This document shows, piece by piece, positions 3,983 through 33,027 of a stretch of DNA of 51,538 nucleotides. The notes beneath the pieces were generated by a model. That model was not told the DNA's origin, searched no databases, and saw only the letters and a program-made list of their open reading frames with translations. The position numbers and the translations under genes were made by a program. Position 1 is the first letter of the stretch. Each line of letters starts with the position of its first letter. The stretch comes from a virus (lineage: Duplodnaviria; Caudoviricetes): positions 1 to 51,538 of IMG/VR virus record IMGVR_UViG_3300014613_000006. One strand, 5' to 3'.

Positions 3983-4025
3983 TGCTGTCTCCTTTACCGC
4001 GTAACCGGGCGCGATCGAACCTGGT

Positions 4026-4451
4026 CTATCGCGTGGTCGGCTTCGGCCTCGTCGCGCTGGGCTCCAGGTACAGGGTGGCCATCAGCCAGCCCGCCTCGTT
4101 GGCGCCCTGCGAATCGGCCGCGATCTGGATCACCTCACCGGCATCCAGCTCCTCACCGACAATGTCGGCGTGCAACGTCTGCTTGACCGCCAGGATGTTG
4201 GCCGCCATGTCGGCCGTGGCCACCAGATCGAGACCCCCGGTCGCCGTATCGAGCGTGACCGCATCCAGATCCGCCGTGCCGCCGTGGTACGTGTAGTCCA
4301 CCCGGGCGACGTAGCAGTTCCACGGCAGCTTGAACGCGTCCAGGATGAACGAGGCCACGTTCATGCCGTTGGGCACGTAGCCGCCGATGCGGACGATAAC
4401 TGGCCCGTGCGGATACGGAGCCGCAGAGAGAGAATCACTTGCCACGATCAC
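4026..4451 (-). CDS. Small capsid-associated (cement/decoration-like) protein
   Basis: About 140 aa, beta-rich, directly downstream of the major capsid gene, AAGGAG RBS. Confidence 0.5.
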   Translation of the reverse strand: MIVASDSLSAAPYPHGPVIVRIGGYVPNGMNVASFILDAFKLPWNCYVARVDYTYHGGTADLDAVTLDTATGGLDLVATADMAANILAVKQTLHADIVGEELDAGEVIQIAADSQGANEAGWLMATLYLEPSATRPKPTTR

Positions 4452-6002: not shown

Positions 6003-6137
6003 TGGTGCCGTCCTTATGCAGGATGCGATTGGTCACGAATCGGGCGAACCGATTCACGTCGCTTGCGACACCACGGTCGTATGTTTTGGGATGAGCGATG
6101 CGTCCCTGGGGCGCCTCGGCCCCTTATGGAATTGTCA

Positions 6138-6168
6138 GGCACCACGGCCCGGCGGGCACCACGGCCCG
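6138..6168. repeat. 14-bp direct repeat GGCACCACGGCCCG x2 in the capsid leader
   Basis: Exact copies at 6138-6151 and 6155-6168. Confidence 0.85.
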
Positions 6169-6185
6169 ATGTGGATTACTACCCG

Positions 6186-6214
6186 AATATACACCACGTT
6201 TTATCCGGCGTCAA
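6186..6214 (-). promoter_or_regulatory. Sigma70-type promoter for the capsid gene
   Basis: TTGACG-17 bp-TATATT on the minus strand; shares GTGGTGTATAT with the promoter at 14175. Confidence 0.65.
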
Positions 6215-6602
6215 CTGCGAAATTCGCGGCTGGCCATTTTCCGAGGATTTCCCCCTCCTCCTCGGTGTGGTACTGGAGCACTTTGAACGTGGCCTCGCCT
6301 ACGGTCACATCGTACCCGCAGGACTCGGCAAACAGCACCAGATCGCCCTCCTCGAAGGGGCCAGGCAGGTCATCAGGGTTGACCTTGACGACAAACCCCA
6401 TGGCCTTCTGCTGTGCGAATTTGTCGGGGACAATCAGCGTTTTGGTTGTCCCCAGGGTCTTTTCCGGGGGCACCTGGCGGACCAGGATGTGCCGGGCGAA
6501 GGGCTCGAAATCCTCGATCCGCAGATTCTCGTCGTCCAGGACCGTCTCCTGGTTCAATAACGCGTCAAAGCACGGCTTGATGGCCGCGTCCGTATCCGCC
6601 AT
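6201..6602 (-). CDS. groES: GroES/Cpn10-like co-chaperonin
   Basis: FEPFARHILVR...LIVPD...GFVVKV...EEGDLVLFAESCGYDVTV...FKVL...EILG matches the Cpn10 pattern throughout. Confidence 0.85.
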   Translation of the reverse strand: MADTDAAIKPCFDALLNQETVLDDENLRIEDFEPFARHILVRQVPPEKTLGTTKTLIVPDKFAQQKAMGFVVKVNPDDLPGPFEEGDLVLFAESCGYDVTVGEATFKVLQYHTEEEGEILGKWPAANFAVDAG

Positions 6603-6620
6603 GGGATTATCTCCGTTCGG

Positions 6621-7565
6621 TTAAGAATCTGCCCCCATCGTGGCAAGTGAGCCTCTCATGCCGGCCAGGAAAGTCTCCCGATCTATCGGGGCGTTGGGGT
6701 CTGGCTGTGTCATGCCCGGCAACGAGCCGCCGGCGGCCGGGGACGGAATGTGCGAATCGACGGTCCCGGCGGGTGCCGGCTGCTGGAATCCCGGCGCCGG
6801 CGTCACCGTGACGCTGTCGCGAACGCCGGGCTGGGCCTCTCGCGTCTGGTCGTCCTGTACGGCGGGCCTGGCCGGCGCGTTCGTCGTCGGGGCGACCGGC
6901 CCCAGGATGTCGCGCATCCGGGTCCATCGATTCTCGGCTTGCAGGAGCACCTGGGCCTGGACGCGGGCGGCCTCGTCCGGGCTCATCTTGTTTGGGTCGC
7001 GGCCCGATGCCCGTATGCCCTCGGCAACCGTGTCGGCGCTGCGGATGATCTCGTCAAGCACGCTGGGATCCTTCGCGGCCAGGGCGGCCAAAACCGGGAG
7101 TTGCTCTGCGTGGCCGGTGATCGTGTTGAGCAGGTTGGCCTGCCGGCTCATCTGTCGCAGGCGTTCGTGCATGGGCTTGATCTGCCCCAGTTCCCGCTCC
7201 AGTTGGGCCATTCGCGCTTCGGTGGCCGCGGGATCGGTGCGCCCGGGCGCCGGATCGGCCTCCGTGACCCCGAACAGTTCCTTGATGGCCTCGGTGTCGC
7301 CCTTCTCGACGCGGTCCAGCAGCTCCCACTTCTTGCGCTTGTCCTCGGGGACAGCCGACTCGGCCAATCGCTGATTCTCGGCGATCAGGTCGGCGACCCG
7401 CCCGATGCGTGTGGAGCCGTCGGGGTTGGTGATCTTGATGAACGCGTCGCTCGGTGCGTATTGCGCGCTGGGCGCGGCCGGCTTCGGTGGCTCGGCTGGT
7501 GGAGCGCTGGCCGGCTGGGCGGCTGGCGTGGCCGGCGTGGCCGGCGGCGATTCGGGATCTGGCAT
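6621..7565 (-). CDS. Putative capsid scaffolding protein
   Basis: Pro/Ala-rich ends with a central coiled coil; lies between portal and capsid. Confidence 0.65.
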   Translation of the reverse strand: MPDPESPPATPATPAAQPASAPPAEPPKPAAPSAQYAPSDAFIKITNPDGSTRIGRVADLIAENQRLAESAVPEDKRKKWELLDRVEKGDTEAIKELFGVTEADPAPGRTDPAATEARMAQLERELGQIKPMHERLRQMSRQANLLNTITGHAEQLPVLAALAAKDPSVLDEIIRSADTVAEGIRASGRDPNKMSPDEAARVQAQVLLQAENRWTRMRDILGPVAPTTNAPARPAVQDDQTREAQPGVRDSVTVTPAPGFQQPAPAGTVDSHIPSPAAGGSLPGMTQPDPNAPIDRETFLAGMRGSLATMGADS

Positions 7566-7576
7566 TGCGTTGTCTC

Positions 7577-9673
7577 CTATGCGACCCAGGACTGTGCGAG
7601 CCCGTCGGCCGTTTCCGGGTCAGCCTCGGCGGCCCACAGGCGTTGCTCGGTCTGATTCTGCTCGAACTCGGCGTCGGCGTCGTCAAACCGACTCACGGTC
7701 GGGCTGAAGTTGCCGACGAAATACTGGTGATACTGGAACTCTTGTATTAAGGCTCTTTGCACGGCCTGCGAGTAAGCCACGAACGGCGGATCGAGTATTG
7801 CGCTGCGCAGCATGTCCGCCGCCGTGCGATGATCCTCGATCTGCTGCCGGCCGCTCCTATCCTGATCCGCGGGGGCAATAGCCGGCTGGACGCCGTCGTT
7901 GATAAGCTGGTCGATCCGCCAGCGGATGCGTTGTTCGGTTTCGTCGAACATGACCAGGCCGGGCGGGTTGAGGTTCAGGTCGTACATGGCCTGCCGTAGT
8001 TCGCTGGCGCTGACCATCGGTGTCTTGCCGTCGTCGTTGAGCTGCTGTCGCAGGCCCATCACCATGTTCAGCATGGCCGCCCGGCCGTTGACCACCAGCG
8101 GCAAGGGTGACAGGTCCACGTCGTTGTGGCCGGGCAGCTTGTCGCGGGCCAGCACTCGCTCGCGGGCGATGCCATCGGTGCCGATGGCCTTGATTCGCTT
8201 CTCCTTGGGCCACACCTCTCGAATGTCCGCCAGTGCCCCGCGGAAAAGCCGTCGGTACGCGCGCCACTTGCGGTCCAGCACCGGTTGAAGTGGGGCCTGG
8301 GCGTTCATGTTCAGTAGTGACGTTGCCGGGCCGCCCTCTGTTCGACCCTCCTGTTGACCGAAGATGATGTCGCTGTCGTGACCGGCGGCTTGCCTGGCCA
8401 GCTCGTAGCAGCTTTGCAGAACGGACACCCTCTCGCGGTTGATCTGGTGGGGCGGGACAGAAAGCACCGGGCCGGTCTTGTCCTGCGGATCGCCGAACCG
8501 GAACGGCACCATGCCGTCGGTGGTGTTCTGGATGTCGTCGGCCGTGACCATGCTGCTGTTGTAGAACGTGAAGCCGCGGTTCTGCTGGGCGCCCTCGATC
8601 ATCTCGCTCATCTGGCGGTTGATTTCGAGCTGCATCGACGTGATCTGCTCGCAGAATCCGTAGGGCCACCAGTCGTGCGGTTTCTTGGTGTAGTACACCG
8701 GCTGCAACGGCAGTTCGCCGTCGTCCAGGGCGATCGCTTGCCCCTGCTGGTCCGTGCCGCTCACGTAGCCGAACATCTCATTTTCGATGAGGAACATGTG
8801 CTCCCCGTGTGGATTGAGGTCCGTCGGCTTCATCCACACCCAGATGGCCAGGGCACCGTCGTAAGGCACGTTGTAGTTGAGGCCCTGCCCGAACGCCGTG
8901 AATCTCGCGTGCATTGAACCGCTTTGCGAGTGGGCCAGCGTGGTCATCGGGCGGGTCGGCTTCTGCCCGTTGCGTCGCTCGTACAGATCGTCCTGCATCT
9001 CCAGCCAGGACTGGGGCATGGTGACGGCCCGCATGACACCGTCCATGTTCTGCCAGGTCGTCGCGTTGGACGGAATCGGAAACAGATCACAGAACGGGAA
9101 GTAGCGCAGGAACACCTGATTGCGCTCGGGCGACTTCTCGCGCATCATGGCGTAGCCGCCGTAAACCAACAGTAGCTGGTTCATCTCGTCGTCGAGCGTC
9201 TCCAGGTCTATCTCGCGCACCCAGTGGTTGATTACTTCCTGGGCAATCTGGGCCTTGTAGAACGCCTCGTCCCCCTTACCGCTCACCGGCGTGGCCTGGA
9301 CGCCCAGCTTGTTCGAGCCCACCCGGCCGAGTTCGCGGCGGTAGGCGGGTTCCATGACCGGAACCGCGGCCATCACCTCGCGATCGTCGTTCCTGGTCAG
9401 CGGCTGATACCGGCCCATGGCGTCGATATGAAACCAGTGGACACCGCTCAGGATGCTCACCACCTGCGTCCACCGGGCGCCGTGGATGGTCCGGGCACTG
9501 AGCCCCTCGTCGAATTGCTCGCGGATGCGCTTGGCGATCGTGCTGGCGGTGCCCCGATCCTCTCTTTTCAAGCCGGCGGCGTCGTCGGTGTTGGGCAATC
9601 GCCCGATCGCCTTGCCAGCTGGCTGCATACGGTTCAGAAAGTACCCGAGTTGGCTGTTGGGTGTTGCCGTCAT
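7577..9673 (-). CDS. Portal protein (P22-like)
   Basis: 698 aa after the terminase; LPLQPVYY..KPHDWWPYGFCEQITSMQLEINRQMSEMIE is characteristic of P22-type portals. Confidence 0.8.
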   Translation of the reverse strand: MTATPNSQLGYFLNRMQPAGKAIGRLPNTDDAAGLKREDRGTASTIAKRIREQFDEGLSARTIHGARWTQVVSILSGVHWFHIDAMGRYQPLTRNDDREVMAAVPVMEPAYRRELGRVGSNKLGVQATPVSGKGDEAFYKAQIAQEVINHWVREIDLETLDDEMNQLLLVYGGYAMMREKSPERNQVFLRYFPFCDLFPIPSNATTWQNMDGVMRAVTMPQSWLEMQDDLYERRNGQKPTRPMTTLAHSQSGSMHARFTAFGQGLNYNVPYDGALAIWVWMKPTDLNPHGEHMFLIENEMFGYVSGTDQQGQAIALDDGELPLQPVYYTKKPHDWWPYGFCEQITSMQLEINRQMSEMIEGAQQNRGFTFYNSSMVTADDIQNTTDGMVPFRFGDPQDKTGPVLSVPPHQINRERVSVLQSCYELARQAAGHDSDIIFGQQEGRTEGGPATSLLNMNAQAPLQPVLDRKWRAYRRLFRGALADIREVWPKEKRIKAIGTDGIARERVLARDKLPGHNDVDLSPLPLVVNGRAAMLNMVMGLRQQLNDDGKTPMVSASELRQAMYDLNLNPPGLVMFDETEQRIRWRIDQLINDGVQPAIAPADQDRSGRQQIEDHRTAADMLRSAILDPPFVAYSQAVQRALIQEFQYHQYFVGNFSPTVSRFDDADAEFEQNQTEQRLWAAEADPETADGLAQSWVA

Positions 9674-10032: not shown

Positions 10033-12111
10033 TTACACTCTGCACAAGGCGTAAGGGTCCATGCGGCGCCGACGCCGCGGGGTTTCCGCCGGGCTCATCG
10101 CTTCCGCGGCCCGTTCGCGCATTTGCTCGGTCCAGGCTTCTTCGGGCACCAAGTGCGGCACTGCTTGCCAATCGACGCCTGCCTTCCGCCATCGCTCGAA
10201 GACTTCCTCGTTCTCGTGTACCGGCTCGGGTGGCGATCCGTGCATGGTCGCCAGGCCCTCGATGGCCATCTGGAGAGCGTCCGCCGCGTCGTCAGGGCGA
10301 GGCGGCCCTTCGTCGGTGTAGCGGTCGAGCTCGCGCAACAGCTCGACGAAGGACCGCTCGTTGGGGTGTGGTGCCGGATAGTGAGTCAGGCCATCCGGCG
10401 TGGACACGGACTGAAAGCGGGGGAAGAAGATCAGGTGTCGGCGATACAGCGGGCGCAGTGTGGCCAGGACGCGCAGGTGCTTGCCCATCGTCTGACAGCG
10501 TAGTGGCACGAGCGAGGGGGGCACCTCACCGCGCTCCTCCATGTCCAGCCGTAACTGCTCGGCCATGCGGTACACGACCTTCTGCATGGCGTTGGTGTCG
10601 AATGCCTGGCGGACGGCACCCCACTCGATACACATCGACATCGCCGTCTCCGGCCAGTCGTCGGCGATCTGCCGCTTGGCGACGCAGTCAAGCACGTACT
10701 TCTGTCGCTCCTGGTTCACGCCGACCATCGCGTTGGCGCCCAAACAGGCCCGCTTGCTCAACGAGTCGGCCAGGTCACATCCACCGCCGATGACCAGGCT
10801 GGCCAGGAAGTGGTCCCAGGGGACGATTGTGCCGGTCAGCAGATTCAGCATGTACTCGGCGGGCAGGCCGGGCTTGAACTCCGGCGACCGCGGATCGTTG
10901 AGGCAGTGCATGTACCCGTGCTTGTACGAATCCCGAATCAGGGCGAACTGCCCCTCACCGATAGGCTTGCCGTCGTACTCGGCGGCCACGTGGGCGGCAC
11001 CCATGGTCTTGGTCTTTACGTCGTAGCCCTCGACGGAGACGTGGTCGCGCATGATCGAAAAGCGCTCGCCGCTCTTGCTGTCCTTCTGGATCATCCCGAA
11101 GTGGACCTTGTTCCAGTCCTCGAACTCCTCATCCAGATCCTCAGAGTCCAGAGTGGGGTCGATGATGCTCTGCAAGGCCCGAAACGCGAACGAGCCGGCC
11201 AGGGCGTTGGCGATCGTGACCAGCTTGCTGCCCGGATAGAACATGCCGAGCAGCTCGCCGAGGATCAGGTCGGTGAGCTCCTTGTTGTTCTTGGGGTTCA
11301 GCAGGGTCTTCTTGTCCTCGGGGTCGTCGATCACGCCGAAGATCGGGTGGCGGCCACGGTGGGGCTTCTGCCGGGAGTAACCGCGGAGGCTACAGAACGG
11401 GTGGCGCAGGAAGTCGAGCTGGCTGTCCTTCCACTTGCCGCCGCTGCGAGCCTTCTGGCTGTAGAGCTCGCCAGCCCCGCCGAAGTCGGCCTGGATCAGC
11501 TTGTTGTGCTCGATCGTCTGGCGGACCACGGCCAGTTCCTCGACCGTTCGCTCCTGGTTGATCTCCATCACCAGCATGATGGTGTACGGTCGCACGATCG
11601 GGATCATCGACCCGGCCTCATGGACCAGGGTGACGGTCTTGGTCGTGCCGCGTGGTGCGTGGATAGCCGTCTTGGCCGGCTCTGTCGGCTCCTTTGCCGG
11701 GCTCATGGCCGCCCGGAGAATGTCGTACTTGACATGCGAATCGCGGAAGTGATACCGGCCACCCGTGTACTCGTCCGGTTTGAGGTAGAACTCGACCCAC
11801 AGCCAGTGCGCCGCGATGTAATTGTCCACGTCAGAGCACAGTTCGTTGGGCTTGGCGCGGTCGTACCAGGACTCCAGAACGGCGATGCGGGCATCCCGCT
11901 GCTGCTCGGGCGTCCCCTCGTCGTACTCGCCGGGCAGGTGAGCCGCGGCCAGGGTCGCCGACCGCACGGCCTTCTCGAACTTCTTGGCGCTCAGGTCGAA
12001 AACGCTGGCATCGAGGTAGTGTCGCAGATGCGGGTTGGGCAGCCGCTCAATCATCGCCCGATCGAGCGGACGCTTCCTCGGTGACGATTTGTGCCTGATC
12101 TCCACACTCAC
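10033..12111 (-). CDS. terL: Terminase large subunit
   Basis: Walker A APRGTTKT, RGRHP..VIDDPED Walker B, nuclease GCDLA and C-terminal DDAADAL motifs. Confidence 0.9.
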   Translation of the reverse strand: MSVEIRHKSSPRKRPLDRAMIERLPNPHLRHYLDASVFDLSAKKFEKAVRSATLAAAHLPGEYDEGTPEQQRDARIAVLESWYDRAKPNELCSDVDNYIAAHWLWVEFYLKPDEYTGGRYHFRDSHVKYDILRAAMSPAKEPTEPAKTAIHAPRGTTKTVTLVHEAGSMIPIVRPYTIMLVMEINQERTVEELAVVRQTIEHNKLIQADFGGAGELYSQKARSGGKWKDSQLDFLRHPFCSLRGYSRQKPHRGRHPIFGVIDDPEDKKTLLNPKNNKELTDLILGELLGMFYPGSKLVTIANALAGSFAFRALQSIIDPTLDSEDLDEEFEDWNKVHFGMIQKDSKSGERFSIMRDHVSVEGYDVKTKTMGAAHVAAEYDGKPIGEGQFALIRDSYKHGYMHCLNDPRSPEFKPGLPAEYMLNLLTGTIVPWDHFLASLVIGGGCDLADSLSKRACLGANAMVGVNQERQKYVLDCVAKRQIADDWPETAMSMCIEWGAVRQAFDTNAMQKVVYRMAEQLRLDMEERGEVPPSLVPLRCQTMGKHLRVLATLRPLYRRHLIFFPRFQSVSTPDGLTHYPAPHPNERSFVELLRELDRYTDEGPPRPDDAADALQMAIEGLATMHGSPPEPVHENEEVFERWRKAGVDWQAVPHLVPEEAWTEQMRERAAEAMSPAETPRRRRRMDPYALCRV

Positions 12112-12126: not shown

Positions 12127-12321
12127 TCAGCCTTCTTGGGCACGCCCGTCTTCGCTCCCGCCATCGTCGCCACCATCAGTTTGTGCTGCTTGCTGCTCTT
12201 GGAGGGCATGATCAGACTCCAGTTCGGCGATCAGCTCGGTCAGGCGGATGGGAAAGAACCGATACGGCGGCACCGGACCAGGGCAACCGGCCGAAAGCTC
12301 CAACATCTCAGCCCTGGTCAC
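12127..12321 (-). CDS. Hypothetical protein
   Basis: 64 aa filling the gap upstream of terL. Confidence 0.45.
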   Translation of the reverse strand: MTRAEMLELSAGCPGPVPPYRFFPIRLTELIAELESDHALQEQQAAQTDGGDDGGSEDGRAQEG

Positions 12322-13141
12322 GATTCGACTTCTCCACCAGATCAGTGGCCACGACCTCTAACCCGGCGCCGGCAGAAGTGTCGCCCGCCGCCTCCGCCGG
12401 TTCCCCGGCCGAAGCTGGTTCGACGGTCCAGGCTGGTACAGCCTGGGCCTCCGAAACACCCTTGGCTGACACTCCGACGCCAGACCCTGCCGGATCCACT
12501 CCCCGTTCTTCCGCCTCACCAGGATCATCTCCAGGCAGTTCCGACACCTCGCCGTCCACCCGTGCCGGCTCCGACGCCTTAGCGTCCCCAGCTTGTGCCC
12601 CAGGGCCTCGCACTGCTCCGTCACCGTCGGCTTGATCACGCTGATCCGCACAGGAATCCTCCTGTTTCGGGCCAACCGGCCCCAGCAACCGCTCCCGCAC
12701 CGCCCGCGGGGCCGGCAACGCCAGCGTCTCCAACACGTCCATGGCCACCAAAGGCAGCTTGATCCGCACGAACCGCGGATCCAGACCACCACGCCGACCA
12801 TGCTTGGTAACCCCATCCGACAACAACGACACCCGCAAGACCGGGTAAACCGCCTTCACACCCTCCCGAAGCTCCTCAGCCAACCCCCGCGGGATAATCG
12901 CACGCGAAATGCCGAACATGAACTCGATCCCACGCAACGCCGAATCCACCAACGCCGGCAACGTCAGGTCCGTAACGTACCAACCCTCGTCACCACGAGA
13001 AGCCGCCAACGACCGCAACTCCTCAATCGTCCCCTGCTGGGTCTCAACCACCTCCTCCAAACCCCGAACCCGAGCCTCCATCCCAACCCCCCACTCACGA
13101 CTGAAACGCGGAGGAGCCTTCTGAGACATCTTCGCCATCAA
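12308..13141 (-). CDS. First gene of the late operon, hypothetical
   Basis: GGAG RBS, short coiled coil near the N-terminus. The low-complexity 3' half overlaps another likely gene, so the true end is uncertain. Confidence 0.5.
   Translation of the reverse strand: MMAKMSQKAPPRFSREWGVGMEARVRGLEEVVETQQGTIEELRSLAASRGDEGWYVTDLTLPALVDSALRGIEFMFGISRAIIPRGLAEELREGVKAVYPVLRVSLLSDGVTKHGRRGGLDPRFVRIKLPLVAMDVLETLALPAPRAVRERLLGPVGPKQEDSCADQRDQADGDGAVRGPGAQAGDAKASEPARVDGEVSELPGDDPGEAEERGVDPAGSGVGVSAKGVSEAQAVPAWTVEPASAGEPAEAAGDTSAGAGLEVVATDLVEKSNRDQG
12358..12651 (-). CDS. Small Cys/His (zinc-binding-like) basic protein nested in the 12308..13141 ORF
   Basis: AGGAGG 6 nt upstream of GTG 12651; product MRISVIKPTVTEQCEALGHKL...ARCRNCLEM...SEC (97 aa). 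Confidence 0.55.
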   Translation of the reverse strand: MRISVIKPTVTEQCEALGHKLGTLRRRSRHGWTARCRNCLEMILVRRKNGEWIRQGLASECQPRVFRRPRLYQPGPSNQLRPGNRRRRRATLLPAPG

Positions 13142-13339: not shown

Positions 13340-13416
13340 TGAGAGCTGAGTTGGCCCCAGTTGAGAACCAGAGGTGACGAAGAAAAGGGTGTGCGAGGGT
13401 GAACCAAGGTGAAACG

Positions 13417-13487
13417 GAGAGAACAGAGAGAACAGAGAGAACAGAGCAGCAGCCTTTATACCACACGTTTATACCCGAGGTTTATAC
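13417..13487. repeat. Tandem GAGAGAACA x3 followed by TTTATAC x3 at 13-bp period
   Basis: 9-mers at 13417, 13426, 13435; TTTATAC at 13455, 13468, 13481. Confidence 0.8.
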
Positions 13488-14174
13488 GCGGCAAAGCGAA
13501 ACCACGCCCACAGAGCAGAAACGGCGGTTTTGGCAGAAATCTGGCCGGCAATATATCGGGGGGGAGGAGGATTCCTTTAACGTGGGGGCACGCGCGGGGG
13601 GGAACCCCCCCCTCGGAATCCCGACATTATGCTCGATCCGCGCCACGAGCCAGGAATCAGCCCGGCCAGCACGCCAGCTCGCCCGTTTGACCGCTGTTGA
13701 AGCCCCGTTACGGCCTTGTTCGGCCGATCCTGGCCTGATCGCCGCCGGAACACGAGCTTCGGCAGGGCAAGCCAGGTCGAACCATGCCGAGGGGGCATCG
13801 GATTGTCAATCCGATGGTCTAAAGTCAGAAGTGCAGACAGGCCAGACGCTTACAGACAGGCCGACAGCGGGCGGATTGGAAGCGCGACAGTTCCGCAACA
13901 GCTGGCGCGCAACGTTGCGCCAACCGGGGAGCCAGCCAACAGGCCCGAAACAGCGCCGGAACAACGGCAGAACAGCCCTCAACCTATTGCAGCAACACTG
14001 GCAAACATGGAGCTGGCCAACAACGAAGTCCCACTCTCCTTGCGCTTATAGAGTCTTACTATCATGCCTGTATGCACCGGAACGCCCCTCTTTGACTTAT
14101 GAATACCCCCCTATACTACGTATAGGCCCCCAAAAAAGCTCGTTAGATTTTTTCGATTTCGGTGAGCCGAAAAC

Positions 14175-14203: not shown

Positions 14204-14303
14204 GATATTGAGCCCGCGATGAGCTGGTCATCCGGGCTCGTGGCCGGACGATGAGTTAGATCGTCTGACTGCCACATCCTACCAGCCCGGAAGGGTTTCC
14301 ACA

Positions 14304-14687
14304 ATGCAAGCCTATTCAGATCCTACAAGGGCGGACGAACCGCACACCTTGCCAATCGCGAACACCCCCAAACACTGCGTCATTCGACGCGCCGACTACC
14401 GTTACAAGTCCACCAGCCCGGTTTTGGACGGCTGGACGAACAACCCGTGGATGGCCCGAGTCTACTTCGACGACTACGACGACGCCAGCCCGCTCTTGAG
14501 CCGCTGCGTCCGAATCAATCTATCCCGCCGTGGCCTGGCCGAGCCGTTCGCTGAGCGCGCCCGGGCCATTGCCACCGATGCCGGCTGTGACGGTCAACCG
14601 ATCGAATGGTACGTCAAGCTGGCGAAAACCCACCGCAACAACATGCGCGCGATGCTCCAGGACATCGCGAACGGGGCCACGATATGA
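14304..14687 (+). CDS. Hypothetical protein with a clamp-loader-like AAA+ C-terminal fragment
   Basis: ASPLLSRC...ERARAIATDAG...NNMRAMLQDI resembles the SRC motif and lid helices of RFC/DnaX/RarA-type ATPases; no Walker motifs. Confidence 0.55.
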   Translation: MQAYSDPTRADEPHTLPIANTPKHCVIRRADYRYKSTSPVLDGWTNNPWMARVYFDDYDDASPLLSRCVRINLSRRGLAEPFAERARAIATDAGCDGQPIEWYVKLAKTHRNNMRAMLQDIANGATI

Positions 14688-14917
14688 CCATAACCGAAAA
14701 ACGCTATCGCTGTCGTCGATGCGGGCACATAAGTCGGCAAAAAACGAACCATTACGGGCCAACGTGGTCCTATGGACACTACAACACCTGTCCGAAATGT
14801 CCACCGTGGGCAAAGTACACGGAGTTCGGCGGACAAACGATATGGGATTGTGTAGACGAGCAGGGGGCAACTGAACCGGCTGGGCCGATGCCGGCTAACC
14901 GAAAGGCTGAACGATGA
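14684..14917 (+). CDS. Small zinc-ribbon protein
   Basis: ATGA-coupled start; CRRCG...CPKC. Confidence 0.7.
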   Translation: MTITEKRYRCRRCGHISRQKTNHYGPTWSYGHYNTCPKCPPWAKYTEFGGQTIWDCVDEQGATEPAGPMPANRKAER

Positions 14918-15090
14918 AGAAGATCACGATCACGATTGAGACAGGGAGCGCGGCATTCGGCCCAGACCCCGAAGTTGAAGTGGCGCGCATCCTAGCGGTG
15001 CTGGCTGAGCGTTTCCGGCGCTACGAGCACCCCGAGATTGTCATGGACTACAACGGCAACACCGTCGGCAAGGTCGAAATCGAGGATTGA
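14914..15090 (+). CDS. Small phage protein (58 aa, below the ORF-track cutoff)
   Basis: ATGA-coupled; MKKITITIETGSAAFGPDPEVEVARIL...DYNGNTVGKVEIED. Confidence 0.7.
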   Translation: MKKITITIETGSAAFGPDPEVEVARILAVLAERFRRYEHPEIVMDYNGNTVGKVEIED

Positions 15091-15125
15091 CCCCTTAGCC
15101 CGGTGCCAGGGCGAAAAAGTCGGCG

Positions 15126-15202
15126 CTGACAAATGAATAGTGCCCCCGCGCCAGGCGAGTGGCGCAGGGGCGGTGCCAGCCAAGGCGTACTTGGCCAGCA
15201 CT
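15126..15202 (+). ncRNA. boxA-like motif followed by a two-hairpin structured element
   Basis: CTGACAAATGAATAG, then an AGTGC/GCACT stem enclosing two GC-rich hairpins; intergenic. Confidence 0.4.
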
Positions 15203-15234
15203 TATGAACATACTCGCCCGACGAGAATCGGGCA

Positions 15235-15519
15235 ATGAAAACGGACCTACCATCATGGGAAGTATACGGGAACTACAAGAGCGGGAACTACGGGGCACAT
15301 GCTCTAGTTTTTACAATAGGGCACCTGCGTGTCTGGTTCAGCTACCAGACGCCTGTAGCCTTTGCCGTTGGCAACGCGGACCCCATTGTACGCCGCAACG
15401 GCTGGGGACCGACGACCGGCAAACACCTAAACGCCATCGACGGGGGCAACAAGAAAACGCGGCTGCCCGGCGACGCATTCGAGGCCCAATTGCGGGGCGT
15501 TTTAGCTGAGACCACCTAA
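15235..15519 (+). CDS. Hypothetical phage early protein
   Basis: 94 aa; FSYQTPVA...TTGKHLN pattern seen in small phage proteins. Confidence 0.7.
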   Translation: MKTDLPSWEVYGNYKSGNYGAHALVFTIGHLRVWFSYQTPVAFAVGNADPIVRRNGWGPTTGKHLNAIDGGNKKTRLPGDAFEAQLRGVLAETT

Positions 15520-15553
15520 CCCCCAGCGCCCGACGGGCAGGAGGAAATCAATC

Positions 15554-15967
15554 ATGGGAGATCGTGCATTAGTTGTATTCACAGATCGGAACGAGACCAA
15601 CTACAGCCCGGTGGTGTATCTGCACTGGGGCGGCAGCGATGTGTTGTCACTACTGGAAGCAGCGTCGCCGCGAATGCGCACGGGCGACGTTTGCTACAGT
15701 GCGGCGCGATTCATCGGCGTTTGCCACGAACAGATGAACGGGCACCGCGGGCTGGGGATTTTCAACTCCCCGACCGGCGACGACGCCAGGGAGGTTATCC
15801 GTAGCGATGATTTTTCCCACGGTGACGCGGGCGTATTCCTTGCGAACGTGGACACATGGATAGTGCAGGCATGGCACGGCTACGGTTTTGGCAATGGAGG
15901 TGATCACCCCACGCCTGACCAGCCGCACACCATGCCGCTTGACGCGTCGAAAGTACCAACGACGTGA
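15554..15967 (+). CDS. Hypothetical phage early protein
   Basis: Strong AGGAGG RBS; MGDRA...VYLHWGG N-terminus. Confidence 0.75.
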   Translation: MGDRALVVFTDRNETNYSPVVYLHWGGSDVLSLLEAASPRMRTGDVCYSAARFIGVCHEQMNGHRGLGIFNSPTGDDAREVIRSDDFSHGDAGVFLANVDTWIVQAWHGYGFGNGGDHPTPDQPHTMPLDASKVPTT

Positions 15968-16036
15968 CGACGCCTGAAATCCCAACCCGAACTAATCCGT
16001 CCCAGGATTAGTATTGCCGAGAGGCAGAAGGAGAAA

Positions 16037-16243
16037 ATGATGCCAGTTATTACGCCAGACGATGCAGCGGGAGTGAAGCGATCGTGCCGTAAGTGGCAGA
16101 CGCTATACCCATTGCAGTACATCGCGACATGCAAGCGAGGGTGCCACGGCGCCCCCGGAGACACCTACGACGACGCCTTAAAGTTGCAGGCTGGCTTAGA
16201 GGCAGACTGCCAGCGTGACCGCGAGAGCGACGACGACAGATGA
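16037..16243 (+). CDS. Hypothetical protein
   Basis: AAGGAG RBS within a linker repeat. Confidence 0.6.
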   Translation: MMPVITPDDAAGVKRSCRKWQTLYPLQYIATCKRGCHGAPGDTYDDALKLQAGLEADCQRDRESDDDR

Positions 16244-16304
16244 CACCAGGGCATTCGGCGCTGGTGCCGATTGAACATTTACCCCCCGAAGGCAGAAGGA
16301 GAAA

Positions 16305-16529
16305 ATGATGAACATGGACAACGAAATTGACGCGGCTATCCGCATCCGAGGTGGCTGGGCATTTATGAGCCGTTGGTTCATTCACAGGGATGGGGATGAT
16401 CGCGTAGAGGTTATCACCCCTACGGAGTGGACCGCGCAGGAGGTCTTGTCACACCCACAGGTCAGCGGGCTGGGGCCGCAGGGTTTAACTAGGGATGTGT
16501 CCGTAGTGGTAATCGCAAACCCCAGCTAA
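16305..16529 (+). CDS. Hypothetical protein
   Basis: AAGGAG RBS within a linker repeat; the stop begins the next repeat. Confidence 0.65.
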   Translation: MMNMDNEIDAAIRIRGGWAFMSRWFIHRDGDDRVEVITPTEWTAQEVLSHPQVSGLGPQGLTRDVSVVVIANPS

Positions 16530-16559
16530 CCCCCAGCGCCCGAAGGGCAGGAGGAAATC

Positions 16560-16823
16560 ATGGCCAAAAATGAACAGTACACGGTTCAGCAAATTGATAC
16601 TCGCACACGCATAGACCGCGAATCAGGCAGCCTAGATGTGTACCGCATATTTTTCGTGACCAAGTCTGGTGGCACGCCCCACACTGTTAATGTCAGAGTT
16701 AGCCACAGCGGCACCCCACAGTCGGAGCGATGCGACTGCCAGGGCTATCGGTATCGGCGTACCTGCAAACACATCACCGCCGTCTATGATGCGGGTGTTT
16801 TGGTTGCAGACCCAGAATGGTAA
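16560..16823 (+). CDS. SWIM zinc-finger protein
   Basis: CDCQGYRYRRTCKH = CxC-n-CxH. Confidence 0.8.
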   Translation: MAKNEQYTVQQIDTRTRIDRESGSLDVYRIFFVTKSGGTPHTVNVRVSHSGTPQSERCDCQGYRYRRTCKHITAVYDAGVLVADPEW

Positions 16824-16906
16824 TCATTTACCCCCCGAGGATGCAGCTCCCCGGGGGGCGTTGGCCGGGCCGGTGTGCGACCCAGCCACGAACAGGATAG
16901 CTGCCC

Positions 16907-17242
16907 ATGGAAGCAGACACAATGACTACTGTTGAAACAGGCGAATGGCTCTGCCGTTGTGGGCGTGTGCTGACCGACGAAATCGCTGCCTGCCCCAACT
17001 GCCTGACCAGGCGCGAGCATGGGGAGGATCTGGCCGTTCGCCAAGAGCTGGTGAAGCGCGTCCGAGGCGAGATCGCCGACGGAACGTATGAGACGCCCGG
17101 TAAGGTGGTCGTGACGGTACGGCGCCTTCTGCCGGCGGTCACGGTGGATACTCGGCCTGGCAAGCCCTGCGTCATCTGCGGAACTGAAATCCCCCTGAGT
17201 GACGAAACCGACACGTGTGTCGGTTGTGAGATTGGAGGCTGA
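16907..17242 (+). CDS. FlgM-like anti-sigma28 segment flanked by two zinc ribbons
   Basis: VRQELVKRVRGEIADGTYETPGKVVVTVRRLL resembles the FlgM C-terminal motif; flanked by CRCG..CPNC and CVIC..CVGC. Confidence 0.65.
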   Translation: MEADTMTTVETGEWLCRCGRVLTDEIAACPNCLTRREHGEDLAVRQELVKRVRGEIADGTYETPGKVVVTVRRLLPAVTVDTRPGKPCVICGTEIPLSDETDTCVGCEIGG

Positions 17243-17243
17243 C

Positions 17244-17738
17244 ATGACGATCAGACGATACAAGCCCACCGAGATGTGCGAGGTGTGCGGTAGCAAATGC
17301 TGCAAGGAAATACCCGGCACGTTATATCCTGAGCAGGTTCGCCCCCTGTCGGCTACGACCATTGCGGAAATGCTGCGAACGGGCCAATGGTCCATCGACT
17401 GTTGGGAGGGCGACGTGATCCCAGATGGCGGCCTGGGTCACGTTAAGTATCTACGCCCGGCAACCATGACTGGGCGGAACACCCACTTTGATCGATCATG
17501 GGGCGGGGTGTGCGTGTTCCTCGGTCACAATAGCTGCAAGCTACCATGGGATAATCGCCCACTCGGCTGCCAGATGCTCAAGCCTGGACCAGCCCCTGGC
17601 ATGTGCTGCATCCCAGGTGTTGAAGAACCCAAAAAGCACGGTGCCTTAGCATGGCGACCACATCAAGCCCTGTTAAGAGAAGCCCTGATGATAGCCGAGG
17701 ACTCCGAAATCTGCCCTGCATGCGAACTAGGAGAATAA
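17244..17738 (+). CDS. YkgJ/CxxCxxCC-like cysteine-cluster protein
   Basis: CEVCGSKCC...CVFL....C......RPLGC; GGAGG RBS before ATG 17244. Confidence 0.75.
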   Translation: MTIRRYKPTEMCEVCGSKCCKEIPGTLYPEQVRPLSATTIAEMLRTGQWSIDCWEGDVIPDGGLGHVKYLRPATMTGRNTHFDRSWGGVCVFLGHNSCKLPWDNRPLGCQMLKPGPAPGMCCIPGVEEPKKHGALAWRPHQALLREALMIAEDSEICPACELGE

Positions 17739-17739
17739 C

Positions 17740-18030
17740 ATGAGCGAGACGAAACACACGCCAGGGGCGATACGAGCGGCCACAGCAATCACCGAGATGC
17801 TCGGTAATCTCTATAGCCCCGAGAAGGTTGTTGATCCAATCGCTGAAATCATCGACCGCGCAACCGCCGCCCCCGAGATGCTGGAGGCAGGGCGGGGGTT
17901 CTTGCATTGGTTCTACGATCACGCAGCCGGCGCCGGCCACCTGCCCCCGCAATGGTGTGAACTCCGGCGCGCCATCGCCAAGGCGGAAGGGGTGACACTG
18001 GAGGATCGCAGTGAAGTTCAAAGCCGTTGA
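17740..18030 (+). CDS. Hypothetical phage protein
   Basis: MSETKHTPG...AAPEMLEA...RAIAKAEG, a common small phage protein pattern. Confidence 0.75.
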   Translation: MSETKHTPGAIRAATAITEMLGNLYSPEKVVDPIAEIIDRATAAPEMLEAGRGFLHWFYDHAAGAGHLPPQWCELRRAIAKAEGVTLEDRSEVQSR

Positions 18031-18793
18031 CACGATCCTGTACGTGCATGGGGGCGCCTTCGCACCTGCTGCTGAGCAGACGGCAGCGCTCTGGGCGTGG
18101 GGCAAGGCACAGCAGGGGCGATGTCGCGTGCTCCGCGATCGCGACGACGAACCCAAACGCGGGACACGTTGGCGTCGCCACCTTGGTCGGATGGTAGGTG
18201 GAGGGCATGTCCACCGCATTGCCATTTATCGCCTCGCCTGTCTATCCTACCGTGCGCGGGAGATTGCCAAGTTTCTGAGGCATTGCCATGGTCATGGAGT
18301 CGAGGTCTTCATCCTTGGCGATGGCTGGAAGATACCTCCAGATGCTCGCGGGGAACGGGTATTGCGCTTCCTTGAGGATGCAGTCCGCTGGGAGCTGCGG
18401 AAGCCAACCCTGGCCCGACGGAAACCCCGCCGGCCGGTGAACATCGAGCATCTTCTCCAGTACGTCCGTGATGGCATCCTGAGCCTGCCGCAGATCGCCC
18501 AGGTGATGGGCGTGCCGACGATGCGGGTCCGCCGGGCGATCGCCAACCGTGGCGGCGTCCGTGCCCACCGCTACTGGCGGCGGCGGCGGATGACTCGCGG
18601 CCAGCGCTCGCTAGTTCAAGAGGCAGTTGATTTTCACGTGGCCGTCCGCGAGAAGGGCGGCCGACCGAAATGGGAGTACCCCGATGGAATCGTCCCGACC
18701 AAACCTCGTACGCGACGCTATCGGCGCCGAGCTGGATCGCGTCGGCGTCAGTCAGCGCACGCTCAGCAGGCGCAGCGGGATCAGCCAGGGTAA
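18011..18793 (+). CDS. Degenerate serine resolvase-like protein with HTH
   Basis: Resolvase-like spacing (ILYV...RIAIYRLACLSYRAREI..FL......GVEVFIL) followed by HTH SLPQIAQVMGVPTMRVRR; catalytic motifs absent. Confidence 0.55.
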   Translation: MKFKAVDTILYVHGGAFAPAAEQTAALWAWGKAQQGRCRVLRDRDDEPKRGTRWRRHLGRMVGGGHVHRIAIYRLACLSYRAREIAKFLRHCHGHGVEVFILGDGWKIPPDARGERVLRFLEDAVRWELRKPTLARRKPRRPVNIEHLLQYVRDGILSLPQIAQVMGVPTMRVRRAIANRGGVRAHRYWRRRRMTRGQRSLVQEAVDFHVAVREKGGRPKWEYPDGIVPTKPRTRRYRRRAGSRRRQSAHAQQAQRDQPG

Positions 18794-18968
18794 GGTCAAC
18801 CAGTACGTCGGCGGCCGCGTCGATGTCACGACCGCGAACGCCTCGAAGATGCTGGCGGCCCTCTCGCTCGCTATCGTGCCCCAGGAACGTTTGGGGCCGA
18901 CCCAGACTGCGTCCGAGCCCAGCGAAGCCGCTGACGGCTCTGTATGCGTGCGAGACGAGCGTTCTTGA
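18684..18968 (+). CDS. XRE-family HTH regulator
   Basis: GVSQRTLSRRSGISQGKVNQYVGGRVDVT...KMLAAL; GGAG upstream of ATG 18684. Confidence 0.8.
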   Translation: MESSRPNLVRDAIGAELDRVGVSQRTLSRRSGISQGKVNQYVGGRVDVTTANASKMLAALSLAIVPQERLGPTQTASEPSEAADGSVCVRDERS

Positions 18969-19040
18969 GGCCGAGCCGACGCGCCCGACAAACTCGGCGC
19001 GACAGATCCGCAACAGTGTCGTGGTGCGGACATGGCTTAT

Positions 19041-19077
19041 CGTGACCTTGCGTGACCTTGTGTGACCGAGCTTGACC
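19041..19077 (+). repeat. Integrase arm-type / directionality-factor repeats
   Basis: CGTGACCTTG CGTGACCTTG TGTGACCGAG CTTGACC at 10-bp period, 50 bp from the att core. Confidence 0.65.
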
Positions 19078-19126
19078 CGTTATGGCTAGGTACACGCCAC
19101 AACAACGTGTCAGGAGTGCTTGCCCC

Positions 19127-19173
19127 TTGGACTGTCGATCCGAAGGTTGCGGGTTCGATTCCCGTCGGCCTCG
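19127..19173 (+). other. attP: attP core: 3' half of tRNA-Asp(GTC)
   Basis: Anticodon arm TTGGA-CTGTCGA-TCCGA, T arm GCGGG-TTCGATT-CCCGT, 3' acceptor CGGCCTC-G; no 5' half; 100 bp upstream of the integrase. Confidence 0.85.
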
Positions 19174-19276
19174 ATCATAAACCCCCTCAGCGACAGAACT
19201 TAGGGCTTTCTCCTGGCTTGTACGAAATCTCGTCACAGACGCGCGGCGCAGATCCGCGACAGTCAGGAGGCTCATC

Positions 19277-20503
19277 GTGCACTGGCGAATCGTCTGGATT
19301 CAGACTCGGCAACGCAAGACGCTGGTCAGCTACCAAGTGTGCTTCTGGGACAGTGGGGCATCGCCCCCAGGGCGACGGATCAAGCGGTCCTTCCGGCATG
19401 AGCGCATGGCCAAGGCTTATGCCCGCCGCCTGGAGCTGCACCTGAACGGCCAGGGACCGGACCCGGAGGCCGACCACTTCCCCGCGGCTGAAGGCCCCGA
19501 AGCCGCCGGCACGCCCTGGCCCGAGGCCGTCGAGACCTGGCTGGGGCGCGGGGGCCGTCGATCCAAGACCACTGCCAGCTACCGGAGTATCCTCGCGGCC
19601 GTCGGGCGGGGCCTCGGCCAGCCCAATGTCGAAGCGGTCTCAGAGGCCACGCTGGCCGATTACCTCACCACTGTGCACCGAAGTGGTGCATCCCTGGCTA
19701 CCGTGGCGGGCTACGTCCGCGTGCTGGGGCCATTCCTCGAAACCCTCCACCCAGGCCCGTCGCCCGTGACCAAGGGGATTCGGGCCGCGTGGAGGCCCTA
19801 TAAGACGCGGAAGAAGGCCCGTCCTCACTTCTACACCGCCCAGGAGTTCACCAACCTCATCGCCCACTGTGAGGCCATGGTGCCCAAGGGGCGAACCTAC
19901 CGCAACGGCCCCTGGTGGACGGCATTCCTGACGTTGCTCTATGAGTGCGGGGTTCGGCTGGGCGAGGCAAGCCACCTCATCTGGCAGGATGTGGACTTCG
20001 AGAATGGCATCATCACCATCCAGCCCCATACCCGGTTAAAGGGCATCACCGACTGGACCCCCAAGGACCAGGCGAGACGCTTCCTGCCCATGTCCGACGA
20101 CCTGGCCTCTCGGCTGATCGTGCTCCAGGAGCGTCAGCCCGCCGGTATCCCGTATGTGTTCCTGGGGGCCGATCGGTATCAGCGGCTACTCAGCCACGGC
20201 CTGTGTGCCTCGGGGGATCTACTCCACGGCATCCACAAGCGATTCGTCGCCATGCGGGCCAGCGTCGGCATCGTGGACGGAGATCTCCACAGCTTCAGGC
20301 GAACGGCGATCACCAACTGGGCACGTGACCCGAACCTGAAACCCAAGGATGTGCAGCTCCTGGCCGGGCACCAGAGCATCGTCACGACGCTGGAAATCTA
20401 CGCCATGGTTGACGGGGATGATGTGGTGAAACGGGCGCGAGGCACTGGGTCATCTCATTCCTCCAGCGCCTTCAGGGCTTCGTTGATCGACTCCGACGTG
20501 TAG
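19277..20503 (+). CDS. int: Tyrosine recombinase / phage integrase
   Basis: Catalytic R (GVRLGE), K, HSFRR, LAGH and Y (LEIY). Confidence 0.93.
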   Translation: MHWRIVWIQTRQRKTLVSYQVCFWDSGASPPGRRIKRSFRHERMAKAYARRLELHLNGQGPDPEADHFPAAEGPEAAGTPWPEAVETWLGRGGRRSKTTASYRSILAAVGRGLGQPNVEAVSEATLADYLTTVHRSGASLATVAGYVRVLGPFLETLHPGPSPVTKGIRAAWRPYKTRKKARPHFYTAQEFTNLIAHCEAMVPKGRTYRNGPWWTAFLTLLYECGVRLGEASHLIWQDVDFENGIITIQPHTRLKGITDWTPKDQARRFLPMSDDLASRLIVLQERQPAGIPYVFLGADRYQRLLSHGLCASGDLLHGIHKRFVAMRASVGIVDGDLHSFRRTAITNWARDPNLKPKDVQLLAGHQSIVTTLEIYAMVDGDDVVKRARGTGSSHSSSAFRASLIDSDV

Positions 20504-30791: not shown

Positions 30792-30885
30792 TGTGCCGGG
30801 CAGGACTCGAACCTGCGACCCAGGGTGTTGGCAAGTCGTCACCAGCCAACAGGTCTCCCCACTCTGCCATCTGAGCTACCGGCAC
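30792..30885 (-). ncRNA. tRNA-like RNA with extended, non-canonical anticodon arm
   Basis: Acceptor GTGCCGG/CCGGCAC, D arm GCTC-AGATGGCA-GAGT, T arm GCAGG-TTCGAGT-CCTGC; anticodon region 38 nt instead of 17. Confidence 0.8.
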
Positions 30886-32835: not shown

Positions 32836-33027
32836 AGTGGTTATGGCCAAGAAAAAACTTGGTGGAGAGGTCCTTGAGGAGCGGGCTGACCATTTTGCGC
32901 GGTGGTGCGAAAAGGTCGGTATGGTGTTGGGCGACAATTAAGATTCCCTCCTGACGACAATTAAAACTCCCTGGCTTTGGCGAGGTTTTCGGCTATCCAG
33001 GTGCTCTTTGGTGGAAAGGAGCACGGG

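Follow-up and report, generated by a model that had tools for sequence, protein, structure and literature searches.

Phages classically take over their hosts with the help of anti-sigma factors. T4 AsiA and T7 Gp5.7, two small proteins made early by their phages, act by binding to a sigma factor of the host, sigma-70 or sigma-S, and redirect or block transcription; factors of this type are not known to derive from a host anti-sigma factor or to contain zinc ribbons. In this study, we analysed an open reading frame (ORF) of 111 codons in the groundwater phage genome IMGVR_UViG_3300014613_000006, the entire virus record of 51,538 bp, which is called the window below. The product of this ORF joins a module resembling the anti-sigma factor FlgM to two putative zinc ribbons, and we give a probability of about 0.55 to the reading that the gene encodes a phage anti-sigma factor made from a captured FlgM module, which silences a host sigma-28-type factor.

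Unlike T4 AsiA and T7 Gp5.7, the phage protein would be derived from a host-type anti-sigma factor, carries the putative ribbons and would have sigma-28 as its target. Zinc-binding anti-sigma (ZAS) factors such as RsrA have the motif HxxxCxxC. The phage protein is like the ZAS factors in combining anti-sigma action with zinc, both of which are predicted here, and differs in that HxxxCxxC is absent from its 111 residues: the only histidine, H38, stands after C32, and the cysteines fall into two separate putative C4 ribbons. We know of no phage anti-sigma factor derived from the host's own anti-sigma-28 factor, and none of the papers listed in our literature searches had a phage FlgM in title or abstract; P23-45 gp39 did appear there (PMC3950348).

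FlgM (PF04316; 1rp3/1sc5 and 9wsf with sigma-28) was the closest family to the phage protein by every sequence search made. The two have in common the C-terminal helix, I-A-x-G-T-Y and second helix, and the predicted docking on sigma-2/sigma-4. Unlike FlgM, the protein studied here is phage-encoded, shares only the last ~45 residues, has a putative Cys4 ribbon instead of the disordered N-terminus and carries a further putative ribbon after the module. In Salmonella, the inhibition by FlgM is relieved by its export via a disordered N-terminal signal, as stated in the excerpt of PMC3372961. Another comparison is offered by TldR, which the excerpt of PMC13418256 describes as a prophage-encoded RNA-guided repressor of flagellin in enterobacterial phages. 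According to the same excerpt, TldR serves a temperate phage to rewire the expression of flagellar genes in its host, as the phage protein may do; TldR is an RNA-guided DNA-binding protein acting on one promoter, whereas the phage protein would be a mimic acting on the sigma factor (PMC13418256). FlgM and phage anti-sigma factors are already known, and what is new here is a FlgM-derived module in a phage, its place between putative ribbons where the regulatory N-terminus would otherwise be, and the presence of such a module in a second phage.

The FlgM-like module

The ORF is open over 111 residues, and its residues 44-75 (17036-17131), VRQELVKRVRGEIADGTYETPGKVVVTVRRLL, are flanked by CxC..CxxC and CxxC..CxxC, as the preliminary description had said; the public gene call (P0001) begins at the second methionine, at 16922, and gives 106 residues. 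An exhaustive phmmer search of 1.84 billion representatives returned nine matches, one of which was the protein itself. Three were long proteins (P0002, P0003, P0006), and the two of them with a listed stretch match over a ribbon. The remaining five were small proteins of 52-128 residues that aligned with residues ~28-78 only (E 7.4e-6 to 9e-4, 47-62% identity). These five small relatives scored 19.9-35.6 bits against Pfam FlgM, one of them above the cut-off of 25 bits, and the six-frame search with the same Pfam profile gave 16.4 bits for the ORF.

A profile of the five small relatives and the query segment (A1, six rows) collected 2,991 proteins of 24-224 residues. From these, 119 of the 120 listed A1 matches, with phage rows excluded, were made into a cellular profile of 81 positions; as the 119 proteins had been collected by means of A1, with the query segment among its rows, their selection is not fully independent. 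Against the 119-protein profile the ORF scored 51.6 bits over positions 33-76 (E 5e-15 among 1,112 six-frame pieces; the search covered the window and the contig L097 described below), and the next best piece of the window reached 7.6 bits. All three invariant positions of a 122-row alignment are retained in the ORF, as are 16 of the 18 nearly invariant ones (19 of 21); the two changed positions are T70 for A and V71 for L. Because the cellular profile scores so high and the conserved positions are kept, the central segment is, on sequence grounds, a true relative of FlgM in its planctomycete form, and the homology is solid. It is also because of the 51.6-bit match that the frame of the ORF is accepted, as the GC content at third codon positions (GC3) did not discriminate it from antisense ORFs.

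Among the 120 listed A1 matches, NCBI calls some 'flagellar biosynthesis anti-sigma factor FlgM [Gemmataceae bacterium]', and JGI calls some FlgM/anti-sigma-28. In genome contigs, 372 of the 413 pattern matches were relatives, and the best 80 of these relatives were mostly labelled as Planctomycetota lineages (Gemmataceae, Pirellulales, Phycisphaerae and others), with a few others such as Alcaligenaceae. The suggestion in the preliminary description that GTYETPxK is a planctomycete form of FlgM was therefore right, and the module it had proposed is a real relative of that family.

Other collections gave little. No NCBIfam model matched the ORF, a search of the PDB by sequence gave nothing below E 0.8 for it, and its ESM Atlas neighbours, with feature scores of at most 0.84 and structure template modelling (TM) scores of at most 0.42, serve as leads only. 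In PHROG, no family was found for five of six FlgM-like sequences, and P0004 weakly matched unknown-function families and a holin family. A search for longer fused forms returned one cellular protein of 227 residues (P0124) and no zinc-ribbon fusion, which is weak evidence, and a scan of viral contigs with alignment A2 found no relative of the whole protein.

Predicted binding to sigma-28

A complex of the module (residues 33-86, alignment A2) with a Gemmataceae FliA (L084, alignment of 33 planctomycete FliAs) was modelled. The interaction prediction score from aligned errors (ipSAE) was 0.69 (0.65, 0.69 and 0.70 in the runs), and the best of three controls gave 0.00. In the calibration sets, 58 of 80 solved complexes but no more than 2 of 110 mismatched pairs attain such a score. 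The runs agreed in at least 65% of contacts, and the predicted local distance difference test (pLDDT) of the partner was at least 66. The predicted contacts involve FliA 40-52, 72-80 and 202-264 and module residues 42-79, and the predicted interface contains 13 of the 21 conserved module positions.

FlgM blocks the polymerase-binding determinants of sigma-2 and sigma-4, as the excerpt of PMC4598750 reports, and the docking predicted here fits that block. The model supports the binding of the module to FliA and does not show it. The preliminary description had proposed a complex model with the host FliA, for which the Gemmataceae protein served here as a stand-in. It had also named the joint absence of a FlgM profile match and of predicted sigma-28 binding as grounds for giving up the assignment, and both a match and predicted binding were found.

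The cellular family in planctomycetes

The FlgM-like gene was present in one copy in five of five genomes, and the same place gave the only Pfam FlgM match at E<=0.1, above the cut-off in three of the five. In one planctomycete order, that of G003, for which 61 genomes were used (G003 and G406-G465), the gene is single-copy in 60 genomes, and a FliA/WhiG-family sigma factor above the NCBIfam cut-off is found in 59. The best match of the family profile among solved structures was 9wsf_B, a 'negative regulator of flagellin synthesis' (E 0.0065). Among the solved relatives of the planctomycete sigma factor, 6pfv_A (201 bits) and 6pfj_A (197 bits) ranked ahead of the FliA-named chains 6pmi_F (168 bits), 9wsf_A and 1rp3_A, and WhiG 7lq4_A was also matched.

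A sigma-28-type promoter precedes some of the cellular genes. Of 80 cellular loci (L002-L081), 8 have the strict core TAAA-N17/18-CGATA on the sense strand, at a distance of 369-496 nucleotides (nt) before the G-T-Y codons. There was no antisense match, and 200 dinucleotide shuffles gave 0.115 matches on average and never more than 2. A relaxed sigma-28 pattern was found in 20 of the 80 loci against 4.28 expected. The eight loci with the strict promoter (L003, L007, L014, L016, L020, L023, L033 and L036) have the boxes TAAAyCTT...GACGATA, and the promoter leaves a leader of ~150-250 nt before the likely start codon, where no conserved ORF was evident. In enteric bacteria, sigma-28 exerts feedback control on flgM. 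Taken from their sequences, these features are consistent with a cellular family that behaves as the FlgM of its lineage. The strict pattern was absent upstream of 10 planctomycete flagellin genes; by eye, some of these 10 upstream regions hold looser CAAG-N16/17-CGA(T/A)xA-like sites.

The FlgM-like gene also forms a conserved pair with a Fur-family gene, as at L072:6280-6774, L009:6276-6764 and L026:6492-6995. This Fur-family gene lies directly downstream, on the same strand and within 600 nt, in 52 of the 80 loci (at least 700 nt of downstream sequence is present in 74), and no flagellar gene was found among the 10 neighbours scanned. Flagellin was found in 19 and FlhA in 19 of the 61 genomes of the order, their union being 21. 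Forty genomes gave no match to flagellin or to FlhA; 37 of them keep the FliA-family sigma factor and the FlgM-like gene, and the missing markers are not wholly due to incompleteness, because several of the 40 assemblies have megabase-scale contigs. The sigma-28/FlgM-like pair in this lineage is therefore probably not purely flagellar, and a non-flagellar sigma-28 regulon is suggested. The earlier proposal that the phage protein shuts off host flagellar genes proved too specific for this reason.

The same findings could be taken to mean that the cellular family is mis-named, being a small regulator tied to the downstream Fur-family gene or to some other partner, which the phage protein would then mimic. 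The frequent Fur-family neighbour, the lack of flagellar genes among the neighbours scanned, the 37 genomes that keep the gene without flagellin or FlhA matches and the Pfam scores of the family members, mostly below the cut-off, all point that way. Nevertheless, we hold this to be unlikely. The gene occurs together with a FliA-family sigma factor (59 and 60 of 61 genomes), it has a sigma-28-type promoter, and none of the genomes checked has another FlgM-like sequence. The predicted docking on FliA sigma-2/sigma-4, with controls at 0.00, also speaks for FlgM, and sigma-28-family factors without flagella are known in other lineages (WhiG, 7lq4_A). Almost all genomes of this one planctomycete order thus have the FliA/FlgM-like pair, and flagellar markers are found in about a third of them; the role of the sigma factor there is now testable.

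The phage protein is like the planctomycete FlgM-like protein in its module and in the 19 conserved positions, and unlike it in lacking the N-terminal motif, the basic linker, the Fur-family gene downstream and the sigma-28-type promoter. The cellular N-terminal motif has the consensus MxxHGPxCLxGPVxRxRxWW. It is also present in G003, a genome without a flagellin or FlhA match, and it is therefore not simply a flagellar export signal. The enteric export logic may accordingly not apply to the host.

Architecture of the phage protein and a second viral contig

AlphaFold2, run with the 122-row alignment, predicted a helix at residues 38-57, a loop G59-T60-Y61-E62-T63 and a helix at residues 64-80, the helices having a pLDDT of 82-89. 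The ribbons were at 52-72, and the predicted TM score (pTM) was 0.33. The prediction shows a hairpin modelled with confidence and, joined to it loosely, two small domains.

Two CxxC-type knuckles ~10-12 residues apart, the pattern by which a zinc ribbon is recognised, occur twice in the ORF, and this cysteine pattern suggests two ribbons that would bind zinc. Residues 84-107 have 53% identity to a repeated Cys4 unit of the long protein P0006 (E 8.7e-5), and DZR (15.6 bits, cut-off 27.3) and Zn_Ribbon_1 (12.7 bits, cut-off 25) stay below the Pfam thresholds. It had been proposed that the N-terminus of FlgM is exchanged for a zinc ribbon in this protein. The exchange itself holds in so far as positions 1-32 of the cellular profile are unmatched and four cysteines are present in their place; the assignment of the ribbon did not gain a profile match above threshold. 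In the phage protein 50 residues follow G-T-Y, so the element is internal and not C-terminal, whereas the chains of 115 cellular relatives end at a median of 20 residues (maximum 37) after G-T/S-Y. A CxxC or CxC pair is absent from 118 of the 119 listed cellular relatives, and P0096 has a single terminal C-x-x-C.

With two of its three parts being putative zinc ribbons, the protein might instead be a nucleic-acid or polymerase-binding factor in which the hairpin is a spacer or dimerisation element that has lost sigma-28 binding. Its neighbours at 14606-14917, 16560-16823 and 17244-17738 are likewise small and cysteine-rich, its second helix has many beta-branched residues and no longer carries the acidic residues of the consensus, and the neighbours that the Atlas gives by structure are zinc-ribbon proteins, none of which reaches a TM of 0.5. 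This reading deserves some weight and is nonetheless improbable in our view. A mere spacer would hardly be expected to retain 19 of the 21 positions conserved in the family, and the face formed by these positions is the one predicted to contact FliA. In addition, a second phage joins the same module to a cysteine-rich part for which BLASTP gave no significant alignment with this protein.

This second case came from a scan of viral contigs with profile A1, which found one further relative among 57 pattern matches, in IMGVR_UViG_3300014501_000046 (L097). Here an ORF of 213 residues carries the FlgM-like module at its C-terminal end, between a helix-turn-helix gene and a Mu-type transposase gene (Table 1). 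The module scored 19.9 bits against Pfam FlgM and 24.7 bits against the cellular profile (E 1.2e-6), and the cysteine-rich N-terminal part matched Zn_ribbon_SprT below threshold (E 0.012). Between the two phage proteins BLASTP gave no significant alignment (best E 0.67), and no similarity was found outside the module. Because two viral genomes of different mechanics (terminal repeats and an integrase in the window, a Mu-type transposase in L097) each joined the module to a cysteine-rich domain, the data argue for selection rather than accident.

It is very unlikely that the gene is an unselected and functionless by-product, in which a recently captured flgM fragment met duplicated zinc-ribbon cassettes. 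The protein is an orphan as a whole, and the region around its gene resembles a set of cassettes, with leaders that recur and an atypical composition, as would suit a by-product. However, its frame is intact, and the nearest cellular modules are 47-62% identical, which indicates that the capture was not recent, yet the conserved positions were retained.

Proposed mode of action

On the model that we infer, residues ~35-80 would form a hairpin of helix, G-T-Y loop and helix, which in the planctomycete FlgM-like protein makes up the conserved C-terminus. The hairpin would clamp a host sigma-28-family factor and cover its surfaces for docking on the core RNA polymerase; the sigma factor would then be kept out of the holoenzyme, and its regulon would be off during infection or lysogeny. 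A folded Cys4 ribbon would stand in place of the cellular N-terminal region, and the second ribbon would cap the C-terminus. With folded ribbons in place of the cellular N-terminal region, the inhibitor would be expected to escape whatever relieves the inhibition by the host FlgM, which in flagellated bacteria is export, and the phage protein would presumably not be exported. Its place in a cluster leading to the integrase suggests an early or lysogeny-associated accessory factor. Which genes fall silent would depend on the host: in a flagellated one they would be the late genes for flagella and chemotaxis, and in any other a sigma-28 regulon not yet described.

The two viral contigs point to a recurrent strategy, in which the part that grips sigma-28 is kept and the part through which the cell exerts control is discarded. 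If this is true, the gene would provide a compact, export-proof sigma-28 inhibitor and a first functional handle on planctomycete phages.

Several points weigh against a captured and functional anti-sigma-28 module. The Pfam FlgM profile (PF04316), by which the preliminary description had proposed to check the module, matched residues 43-65 at its positions 24-46 of 55 with 15.9 bits (E 0.016), below the curated cut-off of 25. Matches of this strength are common, since the control search with the profile gave hits at E<=1 in 11 of 14 reference genomes, some of them archaeal. Divergence is seen in the second helix, which reads KVVVTVRRLL against the consensus KWEAALDRLL. No relative of the whole protein was found by a word-based protein search, in viral contigs, by phmmer or by tblastn of 50,697 GenBank phage records at E<=1. 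The phage protein is without the conserved N-terminal motif of the cellular protein, and this motif may be needed for inhibition. As for the cellular protein, no experimental test of it was found in the literature on FlgM and Planctomycetes, searched by title. The complex model has its own weaknesses. The counts from its calibration sets hold only approximately here because our own alignments were used. Solved sigma-28/FlgM complexes are in the PDB (1rp3, 1sc5, 9wsf), so the good score may be memory. The FliA in the model is a stand-in for that of the host, and the model covers the excised module, to which the ribbons would be added and could clash. The family profile also matches the GntR-like chain 4r1h_A (E 0.014); we rejected a GntR-like reading because FlgM is favoured alike by the family profile, by the names given to family members and by the FliA model.

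A candidate sigma-28-type promoter in the phage

The window holds a single match to TAAA-N17/18-CGATA, running from 13579 to 13554 on the minus strand, TAAAGGAATCCTCCTCCCCCCCGATAT. The site lies inside the divergent non-coding region and faces the ORF 12308-13141 and the large terminase. At least one strict match occurred in 5 of 100 or 12 of 100 shuffles, and the count is not significant. The extended -35 box, TAAAGGAA, and the extended -10 box, CCCGATAT, of the phage site differ from the cellular TAAAyCTT and GACGATA. No sigma-28-type site was found upstream of the FlgM-like ORF, the sole match of the window being on the other strand, and no strict site was found in 8 kb of L097. The placement at 13554-13579 is what a late promoter would need, and this argument from location is post hoc. 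Near this candidate promoter, at 13413-13446, there is a 9-nt tandem unit, AACAGAGAG-like, in three overlapping 16-nt copies.

It is conceivable from this site that the phage uses sigma-28 itself, with the promoter driving a packaging and structural operon and the export-proof FlgM-like protein serving as a timer or a lysogeny lock that would keep sigma-28 bound up to the time of late gene expression. The single strict core, which marks cellular flgM-like genes, indeed lies in a divergent region facing the terminase, and the anti-sigma gene belongs to an oppositely oriented cluster that ends in an integrase. We consider this doubtful, given the frequency of matches in shuffles, the post hoc nature of the location argument, extended boxes unlike the cellular sites and the lack of a site in the 8 kb of L097. 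Moreover, the consensus is only partly calibrated, the strict pattern being absent before 10 planctomycete flagellin genes. Quite unlikely, too, is the wider idea of a sigma-28/FlgM switch as a phage developmental clock, where the module locked by zinc ribbons, out of reach of removal by the host, would set the time or the host cell type in which sigma-28 is freed for late transcription. As most of the sampled Gemmatales genomes have sigma-28 and the FlgM-like gene but no flagellar genes, the hijacked circuit would be non-flagellar, possibly one of cell cycle or differentiation. The silencing of a host sigma-28-type factor by a captured FlgM module remains our preferred reading.

Genome and gene neighbourhood

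Table 1. Features of the window (IMGVR_UViG_3300014613_000006) and of the second viral contig (L097).
Sequence	Feature	Coordinates	Strand	Evidence
Window	Portal gene	7577-9673	minus	
Window	Large terminase gene	10033-12111	minus	
Window	ORF adjoining the divergent non-coding region on the terminase side	12308-13141		
Window	Divergent non-coding region, 1.2 kilobases (kb)	13.14-14.30 kb		
Window	Cluster of small, mostly Cys-rich accessory genes, ending in the integrase	14304..20503	plus	
Window	Zinc-ribbon-like gene	14606-14917		Pfam
Window	SWIM-like gene	16560-16823		Pfam
Window	ORF of 111 residues: putative N-terminal zinc ribbon, FlgM-like two-helix module, putative C-terminal zinc ribbon	16907..17242	plus	
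Window	Putative N-terminal four-Cys ribbon, C16-x-C18...C29-x-x-C32	16952..17002	plus	Cys pattern; pLDDT ~62-64 (AlphaFold2)
Window	FlgM-like module, residues 35-78 (positions 33-76 of the cellular profile)	17009..17146	plus	Profile, phmmer, AlphaFold2
Window	Putative C-terminal four-Cys ribbon, C88-x-x-C91...C104-x-x-C107	17168..17227	plus	Cys pattern; pLDDT ~69-72 (AlphaFold2)
Window	CxxCxxCC putative zinc- or iron-chelating domain protein, 164 residues	17244..17738	plus	PF03692, 26.7 bits (cut-off 23)
Window	Helix-turn-helix/resolvase-like gene	18011-18793	plus	
Window	Tyrosine integrase	19277-20503	plus	
Window	Replication block: DnaC-like loader, helicase, SbcC-like protein	~20.7-30 kb	minus	
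Window	Transfer RNA-like gene, four-base anticodon (ttgg), no identity assigned	30792-30885	minus	ARAGORN
Window	IS21-type insertion: IstA-like (516 residues) and IstB-like (257 residues)	32977-35297	plus	
L097	Helix-turn-helix gene upstream of the 213-residue ORF	3011-3487		
L097	ORF of 213 residues: Cys-rich N-terminal part, C-terminal FlgM-like module	3524-4165		
L097	Mu-type transposase directly downstream of the 213-residue ORF	4565-6676		DDE_2, 42.9 bits; Mu-transpos_C, 37.6 bits

The window has direct terminal repeats and a CheckV completeness of 100. Its phage origin is indicated by these repeats together with the portal, the large terminase and the tyrosine integrase. No Rfam family was found anywhere in the window at gathering thresholds, and the large terminase had no relative among the viral contigs, nor in 401 planctomycete genomes at E<=1e-20. 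Relatives of the IS21-type transposase (IstA) were found in 20 of the 401 planctomycete genomes, with 64% identity at most, planctomycetes being the sole phylum searched; these sequence matches are compatible with a planctomycete host and do not show one. When the module was compared with the 80 cellular loci by blastp, the scores were alike across Gemmataceae, Pirellulales and Phycisphaerae, and this comparison assigns no host.

The region 14300-18100 is present in contigs of groundwater metagenome runs. In four runs, half or more of the sampled words were present, and two of these runs are possibly the source. Contigs of runs X3 and X4, which belong to a further study, have exactly the same sequence over the gene and add no evidence of selection.

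The accessory cluster around the FlgM-like ORF has GC and GC3 below those of the structural genes. The gene for the CxxCxxCC protein starts one base past the stop codon of the ORF, and the two are probably co-transcribed. The PF03692 family also includes the Salmonella flagellin methylase FliB, but no NCBIfam model was found for this gene, and a flagellar link is tentative at most. A scan for sigma-70 promoters and terminators over 12.5-21 kb gave no more sites than shuffled sequences did.

The cluster also contains repeated leader sequences. A 39-nt repeat with 95% identity is found at 15512-15550 and 16522-16560, before the ORFs 15554 and 16560. Identical copies of a 21-nt repeat at 16022-16042 and 16290-16310 reach into the starts of the ORFs 16037 and 16305, and the identical 14-nt sequence CATTTACCCCCCGA occurs at 16276-16289 and 16825-16838, before the ORF 16305 and the FlgM-like ORF.

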